In this document: one piece after another, positions 12,056 through 12,929 of the stretch
Layout of the letters: each line of letters begins with the position of its first letter
Numbering within the stretch: the first letter of the stretch is position 1
NCBI RefSeq assembly: GCF_003334785.1
Contig: NZ_QOWV01000017.1
DNA: 64,000 nucleotides
Strand: one strand, 5' to 3'
Source of the DNA: Escherichia coli
GTDB lineage: Bacteria > Pseudomonadota > Gammaproteobacteria > Enterobacterales > Enterobacteriaceae
Notes under the pieces: generated by a model
Database searches by the model: none
The model's input: only the letters and a program-made list of their open reading frames with translations
What the model was told of the DNA's origin: nothing
Position numbers and translations under genes: made by a program

Positions 12056-12929
12056 GAACACACCTTTATCTTTTATCGCTGTTCAGTATGAGTGATTACC
12101 TGTCGATTCCTGAGCACACATAAGGGGTAACCATAAACATCAGCGATGCCATACGTATAACATCCCACATCACTATCAAGAAGATTATCTTTACCTCTGA
12201 TGCTCGCTCAAAAACAGTTACGCTAAATACCTTAAAAAGGTAATCACAAGTCAAACTCAGGAGATAATCACGCAAGAATGCAATATTAAAATTCAGATAC
12301 TCATTTTTGGTAATAAAGAAGTAGTTGGACTATTTCAATATTTATAATTTCCCACTACATACTGGCATCCATTCATGAGCAAAGGCGCATTATATGAATT
12401 TAACAATCCAGATCAACTGAAAATACCTCTCCCTCATAAACACATAGCGTCAACATTCAATGACATAATGAGTAAAGATGTTGGTTATGCATACGTATCA
12501 TTACTCTATGCCTGTCCCTTAAAAACCCACTCATTAAGACTGAATCCATTCAGCAAATGATAACCAATATTATAGCAATGCCAATAAAAACAATATTTAA
12601 AACATTCAATAAAATATCACACACAGATAATTAAACCTTAAATAACAAATGGTTGCGTTAATTTCAGTTGATTTACGATACACATTTCTCATGAATAATG
12701 CGTCATTTCAAATGATCAGCAATATTTACATTAAATAAGACTAAACTTATTGAACATTCGCAACAGCCCAAATGTAGGTTTTGGGCTGCAATAGTTCTTT
12801 TCTTTTTTATTATCTGTTGTCTGGTAATCATCAATAGATACTAAGGGCTTAACCGTATAGATATAACGTATCAAGAGGTAGGAGAAACAGCGCCATATGC
12901 AGACATGGCGCGGTTTTATGCAATAACAA

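Follow-up and report, generated by a model that had tools for sequence, protein, structure and literature searches.

The window analysed here is a stretch of 64,000 nucleotides of Escherichia coli DNA in which the genes betT and pdeL, both on the minus strand, are separated by an AT-rich spacer. Over positions 12062–12929, this spacer is 100% identical to the corresponding DNA of E. coli K-12 MG1655, BL21(DE3), and ATCC 8739. It measures 874 bp to the annotated ATG of pdeL and 868 bp to the first in-frame GTG (12062). Its A+T content is 66.2%, and the GC fraction in 200-nt windows is 0.28–0.35 as compared to approximately 0.5–0.6 in the flanking genes, values that bear out an earlier note on this DNA, which had described the region as unusually long and AT-rich. 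A window position x corresponds to MG1655 position 331497 + (12929 − x), with the plus strand of the window being the minus strand of MG1655, and the annotated yahV coordinates agree with this conversion. No plus-strand gene is annotated upstream of the hairpin on which we focus below (yahB ends at 10925, past pdeL), and the earlier note was correct on this point, both flanking genes being on the minus strand. It had, however, taken the interval as empty, whereas yahV and the mapped pdeL promoter in fact lie inside it; also omitted were the pdeL start site, the Cra box, and the betT hairpin at 12890–12911. The features of the locus are as follows.

10967–12055, minus strand: pdeL, annotated gene with its ATG at 12055
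12056–12929, no strand: betT–pdeL spacer, the published pdeL regulatory region controlled by H-NS, Cra, and PdeL
12416–12389, minus strand: pdeL promoter P1, with −35 TTGATC, 16-nt spacing, and −10 TATAAT; start site at approximately 12384
12526–12539, no strand: Cra-dependent PdeL box, just downstream of the Cra box (oligonucleotides of Reinders et al.)
12540–12554, minus strand: Cra box, GCTGAATGGATTCAG (mutagenic oligonucleotides 5030 and 5028, supplement of Reinders et al.)
12550–12624, minus strand: yahV (b4730), known gene with a GTG start, encoding a hydrophobic small protein of 24 residues
12672–12699, plus strand: best predicted promoter-like match upstream of hairpin 2, TTTACG-16-AATAAT, with a start near 12706
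12731–12754, no strand: inverted repeat AATAAG-N6-CTTATT, adjoining the base of the extended stem of hairpin 2
12752–12797, plus strand: extended stem-loop of 46 nt with a GAAC...GUUC outer stem, −15.0 kcal/mol
12764–12788, plus strand: core hairpin (hairpin 2), nine perfect pairs and a 7-nt loop; MG1655 331638–331662
12798–12813, plus strand: U-run, UUUUCUUUUUUAUUAU, kept even in lineages that lack hairpin 2
12890–12911, minus strand: hairpin 1, starting 19 nt past the betT stop codon; resembles a terminator on either strand
12930–14963, minus strand: betT, annotated gene

The spacer is a regulatory region in which H-NS, Cra, PdeL, IHF, and Fis assemble; H-NS and PdeL compete there, and an hns mutant is derepressed (Reinders et al., bioRxiv 10.1101/2021.10.01.462762). 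Repression of pdeL by H-NS is likewise reported in a preprint from the Schnetz laboratory (10.1101/2022.01.19.477023). The suggestion in the earlier note that this is H-NS-bound regulatory DNA upstream of pdeL is therefore upheld by published work and is not new, the region being both AT-rich and subject to a documented H-NS effect. The start site of pdeL has been mapped to MG1655 332042 by SMRT-Cappable-seq and, by Cappable-seq, to U00096.2 331267, equivalent to 332043 in current numbering. It lies downstream of the promoter that Reinders et al. call P1, for which they used the mutant oligonucleotide 5032 (bioRxiv 10.1101/2021.10.01.462762). With a start at approximately 12384, the 5′ UTR of pdeL is about 329 nt long. 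Two further Cappable-seq start sites on the minus strand fall within this leader, at window positions 12297 and 12147 (U00096.2 331353 and 331503), which suggests internal promoters or leader processing. Strain EC590 (locus L087) carries an IS1 insertion at approximately 12150–12160, within the 5′ UTR of pdeL, and a second genome gives the same two-piece match; such an insertion could act as an activator of an H-NS-silenced gene.

The Cra box is conserved in all five lineages compared and shares sequence with the final sense codon and the stop codon of yahV (12550–12552), which places yahV within the upstream activator region of pdeL, 166–240 nt upstream of the pdeL start. The YahV protein has been detected by chromosomal tagging (VanOrsdel et al. 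2018, PMC6001520; also PMC9976479). It matches no NCBIfam family, and we therefore rejected the idea that it is a member of a known toxin family. The yahV frame is intact in the B2 and D6 types (VSDILLIVLNIVFIVIVIMLAIYC and VSDILLIVLNIVFIVIAIILVIIC; loci L004 and L005), where the allele is unannotated in JJ1887 (B2) and labeled "hypothetical protein" in D6, and it is unrecognizable in Escherichia sp. E1V33 and strain SCPM-O-B-8794.

In hairpin 2, the arms CAGCCCAAA and TTTGGGCTG flank the loop TGTAGGT, and five of the nine pairs are G–C. The earlier note had described a 9-bp GC-containing hairpin at exactly this position, and the pairing is indeed perfect. Folded as plus-strand RNA, it has an energy of −14.4 kcal/mol (z = −3.35), and none of 200 shuffled sequences folds equally well; as minus-strand RNA, the window type reaches −14.9 to −18 kcal/mol. 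A perfect 9-bp hairpin does, on the other hand, appear in 4.3% of mononucleotide-shuffled spacers, a frequency that counts in favor of an incidental origin. Hairpin 2 is single-copy in the 64-kb window, even with up to three mismatches allowed, and occurs at a median of one place per genome across E. coli, which rules out a repeated or mobile element of the REP or BIME kind. A scan of 11500–13500 against Rfam 15 with E values up to 10 returned three chance-level matches, none of them at hairpin 2, and, with no meaningful match, we rejected a known RNA family as well. Hairpin 2 is an undescribed element, of an ordinary kind.

Immediately beside it, the inverted repeat at 12731–12754 is a perfect 12-bp palindrome, AATAAGCTTATT, in B2-, D6-, and E1V33-type sequences. 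It forms the best-conserved island between betT and yahV, a region in which the lineages otherwise differ by 30–35%. We know of no protein that binds this AATAAG/CTTATT repeat; it might be a regulator site, for example a distal PdeL box. Hairpin 2 could in principle also act at the level of DNA, as a site for a dimeric protein or as a cruciform-prone palindrome within the nucleoprotein complex upstream of pdeL, given that it is a perfect palindrome, adjoins the strongly conserved repeat, and lies where H-NS, Cra, PdeL, IHF, and Fis assemble. We regard such a role as highly improbable. The arms of hairpin 2 are not conserved whereas the neighboring repeat is, none of the sites reported for the pdeL promoter has 9-bp arms around a 7-bp spacer, and the published Cra box and Cra-dependent PdeL box are approximately 200 bp away. 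The oligonucleotide table of Reinders et al. does not fix the position of the Cra-independent PdeL box relative to hairpin 2.

The earlier note had further placed a T-rich stretch a few bases after the hairpin. That stretch is present at 12798–12813, but it begins 9 nt from the core stem and is not adjacent to it, which is why a simple consensus scan made no terminator call here. When a longer plus-strand stretch is folded, however, an outer GAAC/GUUC stem pairs 12752–12755 with 12794–12797 and brings the U-run UUUUCUUUUUU (12798–12808) flush with the stem base. To score this arrangement, we used our own index d of the d'Aubenton-Carafa type, which combines hairpin energy per nucleotide with a weighted T-run on the basis of ViennaRNA energies, at all positions on both strands. 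The index is positive at just 13 sites in the 64-kb window (128 kb of sequence over both strands). The extended stem of hairpin 2 is the sole positive site in the spacer, with d = +4.9 on the plus strand (T-score 4.97), a value that holds only if the interrupted outer GAAC/GUUC stem forms and sets the U-run directly 3′ of the stem. On the minus strand, no site in the spacer scores above −15.9, and hairpin 2 itself reaches only −35.7 when read in the sense of betT.

The terminator-like signal of hairpin 2 on the plus strand exceeds chance. Among 300 dinucleotide-preserving shuffles of the spacer, none gave a plus-strand d above 0, and three gave a d of at least 4.9 on either strand. Calibration against the annotation of ATCC 8739 showed that some of the positive sites are genuine terminators; two of these, the one following ecpA and the one separating ykgJ from yagU, have scores in the same range as hairpin 2. 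About half of the positive sites in the window lie inside genes or at no annotated gene end, so that the specificity of the score is limited and a positive value is suggestive, not diagnostic. Two other elements of the window deserve mention in their own right. One, at 14891–14926, is a strong hairpin flanked by T-runs that scores as terminator-like in either orientation (+1.2 and +6.0); it falls within the opening 25 codons of betT, not far from the divergent betT/betI promoters. The other, at 32683–32732 on the plus strand, is an orphan terminator-like stem-loop with d = +11.4. It closely precedes the start codon of fdeC, and no gene on that strand ends in its vicinity.

We tentatively read plus-strand positions 12752–12813 as a weak intrinsic terminator, specific to the K-12/B lineage, that forms a barrier to stray antisense transcription; we hold this reading at somewhat less than even confidence. 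RNA polymerase would start at promoter-like sites in the AT-rich, H-NS-silenced yahV/pdeL region and head antisense toward the 3′ end of betT. It would then transcribe the 46-nt stem-loop followed by the U-run and be released near 12803–12808 (MG1655 approximately 331618–331623, minus strand). The hairpin at 12890–12911 would serve as a backup stop, and hairpin 2 would not be the end of a dedicated, abundant small RNA. Promoter-like sites upstream of hairpin 2 on the plus strand have predicted starts near 12508, 12568, and 12706. The structure of the element, its score against chance, and its spread over lineages were observed directly, whereas we infer that plus-strand transcription reaches hairpin 2, that it terminates there, and that the cell benefits from this. 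The lower stem is broken by a bulge and an internal loop, so the efficiency of termination may be low.

The structure resembles known intrinsic terminators in being a stable G+C-containing stem-loop (core −14.4 kcal/mol, extended −15.0 kcal/mol) followed directly by a U-run, provided that the outer stem is taken into account, and, as with bidirectional terminators at gene ends, a second, two-sided hairpin stands 100 nt away. It differs from them in that its lower stem is interrupted, in that it is limited to one E. coli lineage, and in that no 3′ end falls in its U-run in curated Term-seq data, although the three K-12 conditions sampled keep the region silenced. Nor does it stand at the end of a transcription unit, as neither a gene nor a known transcript precedes it on the plus strand and the promoters there are only predicted ones. 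We also considered hairpin 2 as the relic terminator of a decayed plus-strand gene and rejected this on the evidence from open reading frames and homologous spacers. The only sizeable plus-strand open reading frame (12375–12560, 61 amino acids) has no NCBIfam match, and it runs across the conserved Cra box and pdeL promoter. In bet-less Escherichia, where the homologous spacer follows ykgG, there is no gene on the plus strand either.

We compared the element across lineages. The segment 12725–12830 is present in 3,749 of 5,426 complete E. coli genomes; it is at least 99% identical in 1,674 (approximately 31% of the 5,426) and 90–95% identical in 2,050. The hairpin is perfect only in the first of these groups, the window type of the K-12/B lineage. 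Ten distinct sequences of hairpin 2 were assembled from the genomes and from a metagenome scan with the conserved neighboring motif, the latter adding further E. coli variants and one more divergent lineage. Among these ten sequences, none of the nine pairs is altered on both sides and the pairing is not above that of shuffled controls, and on this ground we rejected a conserved RNA structure. Over its 25 nt, hairpin 2 diverges at least as much as the spacer average (16% versus 8% against B2; 32% versus 30% against E1V33), and as the stem changes no more slowly than the DNA around it, we rejected purifying selection on it too. What is well conserved in the spacer is the U-run, the AATAAG/CTTATT repeat, the Cra box, and the P1 promoter. 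In three divergent lineages (E1V33, SCPM-O-B-8794, and L058), hairpin 2 is absent while the flanking blocks persist, as does the U-run in the Escherichia lineages without the bet genes.

These observations give weight to the view that hairpin 2 is a lineage-specific inverted repeat of incidental origin, without a selected function, in which an ancestral complementarity of 4–5 bp drifted to 8–9 bp in E. coli proper beside a T-tract that is merely part of AT-rich DNA. The restriction of the perfect stem to the window type, the lack of covariation, a divergence at or above the spacer average, the absence of the hairpin between conserved flanks in the three divergent lineages, and the shuffling frequency given above all agree with such an origin, as do the further orphan sites of positive d in the window and the lack of mapped RNA ends. 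We nevertheless think it a somewhat unlikely explanation. A stem with an adjacent U-run is rare in shuffled spacers (0 of 300 on the plus strand, approximately 1% on either strand). In addition, the substitutions that separate the alleles are wobble-compatible on one and the same strand, the plus strand: the C-to-T and A-to-G transitions of the D and B2 alleles become G–U wobbles in the plus-strand RNA and A–C mismatches in the minus-strand RNA, leaving energies of −7 to −12 kcal/mol on the plus strand versus −4 to −9 kcal/mol on the minus strand. The chance that two transitions favor the same strand is approximately 1/4, so this bias is only a hint.

A third point against an incidental origin is that hairpins 1 and 2 strengthen and weaken reciprocally between lineages. 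Position 12889 is A in the K-12/B type versus C in B2, D6, and O157:H7, a change that costs hairpin 1 two base pairs. In the D6 and B2 types, hairpin 1 is a good two-sided terminator by score, with d = +11.3 when read in the direction of betT and d = +6.7 on the plus strand, and hairpin 2 is below threshold (−2.5 and −8.6); in the K-12/B type, hairpin 1 drops to approximately −16 on both strands and it is hairpin 2 that is positive on the plus strand (+4.9). Exactly one plus-strand element of positive d thus stands between yahV and betT in each of the E. coli lineages examined, which does not always hold for the betT sense. The retention of one such element per lineage fits selection for a plus-strand stop and hence the terminator we propose, with only two lineage groups contributing to the pattern.

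The block structure of the locus also varies among relatives. In O157:H7, only 12890–12929 is retained beside betT, after which an island carrying the autotransporter gene ehaA replaces yahV–pdeL. In Escherichia sp. E1V33 and strain SCPM-O-B-8794, from which ykgH-betABIT is missing, ykgG directly joins the hairpin 1 homologue and a 71–75% identical version of the whole pdeL spacer. The locus is a junction of interchangeable blocks at 12867–12890 (loci L003, L006, and L007). Upstream of pdeL in E. albertii, in E. whittamii, and at one further pdeL locus, no homology to the spacer is detectable.

Published transcript maps bear on all of these readings. The curated Term-seq data of Adams et al., obtained from K-12 in LB at OD 0.4, in LB at OD 2.0, and in M63 glucose, contain no 3′ end on either strand between MG1655 331500 and 331899, and the part of the TRS tables available shows none in the spacer near hairpin 2. 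The earlier note had named the lack of 3′ ends near 12790 as the observation that would count against its proposal, and for these three standard growth conditions this is what the Term-seq data give. As the sampled conditions keep the region silenced, the lack of ends is weak evidence. SMRT-Cappable-seq places only the betT and pdeL start sites in the neighborhood of the spacer, and on the window plus strand no start site or transcript is documented in SMRT-Cappable-seq, Term-seq, or the available portions of the TRS tables. In the Cappable-seq list for the MG1655 plus strand, a start at U00096.2 330673 (window 12977, in the 3′ end of betT) is followed next by that of pdeL. With no start site listed between 12977 and yahV on that strand, the yahV mRNA must cross both hairpins.

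This last observation favors a role in the opposite, betT-sense direction, in which hairpin 2 would be a minus-strand stem-loop carried by betT read-through transcripts and by the yahV leader. There it would protect 3′ ends after Rho termination some tens of nucleotides downstream, or help to insulate the H-NS-silenced pdeL promoter from betT read-through. The minus strand is the strand known to be transcribed, the yahV mRNA must pass through the hairpin, and the YahV protein has been detected; the fold is also as strong on this strand in the window type as given above. Adams et al. report, as their only entry here, a Rho termination region at MG1655 331703 on the plus strand, or window position approximately 12723 on the minus strand, which lies 41 nt past hairpin 2 in the betT sense. 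Its Rho score is 3.74, with upstream/downstream reads of 152/80 in untreated cells and 159/313 with bicyclomycin. The 800-nt flank used for this score includes the pdeL promoter, however, and derepression of pdeL by bicyclomycin could therefore mimic read-through.

Further points in its favor are that the protection of H-NS-silenced DNA by Rho and NusG is established in general (PMC6797219), that the P(pdeL)-pdeL deletion of Reinders et al. stops at the 3′ edge of hairpin 2 and leaves the hairpin with betT, and that the hairpin 1 of betT itself is weakened in the K-12/B lineage, where read-through of betT into yahV/pdeL may consequently be higher. We still consider a betT-sense function unlikely, given that no U-run follows on the minus strand (d = −35.7), that the B2 and D variants carry A–C mismatches there with energies of −2 to −9 kcal/mol, and that no Term-seq 3′ end coincides with hairpin 2.

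The plus-strand barrier that we favor shares its setting with the Rho/NusG-guarded, H-NS-silenced regions described previously (PMC6797219). Like them, the spacer is AT-rich, repressed by H-NS, and rich in promoter-like sites; its plus-strand RNA is C-rich and G-poor (C/G = 1.8), and a Rho-dependent region has been mapped within it. The difference is that hairpin 2 would act independently of Rho, and spurious plus-strand transcription is, at this locus, only proposed.

The earlier note had instead raised the possibility of an unannotated small RNA or regulatory structure. Nothing positive turned up for this proposal: hairpin 2 has no Rfam match, no mapped 3′ end, no covariation, and no conservation beyond E. 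coli proper. Our literature search returned no paper on a named betT/pdeL intergenic RNA, and a small RNA ending at hairpin 2 is hypothetical. In its most specific form, the idea is that hairpin 2 terminates an unannotated antisense or divergent RNA of approximately 100–300 nt that pairs with yahV in the manner of a type I toxin–antitoxin system. As in ibs/Sib, shoB/ohsC, and tisB/istR, a short hydrophobic open reading frame faces a terminator-like element on the opposite strand, here 128 nt from the yahV start codon, and the 24 residues of YahV are almost wholly hydrophobic. Plus-strand promoter-like sites lie at the positions listed above, and the best of them is, like the strong hairpin, specific to the K-12/B lineage, its AATAAT having decayed to AATAAA in the B2 and D types.

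Even so, we judge this to be quite improbable. The maps, as far as they were available, document neither a transcript nor a start site nor a 3′ end for such an RNA, and there is no Rfam match. YahV falls in no NCBIfam family and has no known antisense RNA or toxicity. In growing cells, tagged YahV is easy to detect, and in this it differs from type I toxins under tight repression. The yahV frame persists in B2 and D types in which hairpin 2 is degraded. Lastly, the yahV locus is single-copy, whereas ibs, ldr, and hok are present in several copies.

A related proposal is equally doubtful. In the K-12/B lineage, a plus-strand RNA of approximately 100–300 nt would run from within or beside yahV to 12803–12808 (MG1655 approximately 331620, minus strand), antisense to the leader or coding region of the membrane peptide YahV. 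It would control YahV, or transcription into the pdeL switch, either as part of a type I toxin–antitoxin pair or as an antisense attenuator, and the swap in hairpin strength between the lineages would reflect selection for a plus-strand stop before betT.

At present, the main value of this analysis is the corrected map of the spacer, with yahV, the pdeL promoter, the Cra and PdeL boxes, and two hairpins in their places. If the plus-strand terminator is real, it would illustrate on a small scale how a silenced AT island full of promoters is fenced off in E. coli from a neighboring housekeeping gene, and it would indicate that such fences are rebuilt by point mutation in different lineages. If a real antisense RNA ends at hairpin 2, it would be the first regulatory handle on yahV, which sits within the DNA that controls the PdeL c-di-GMP switch.
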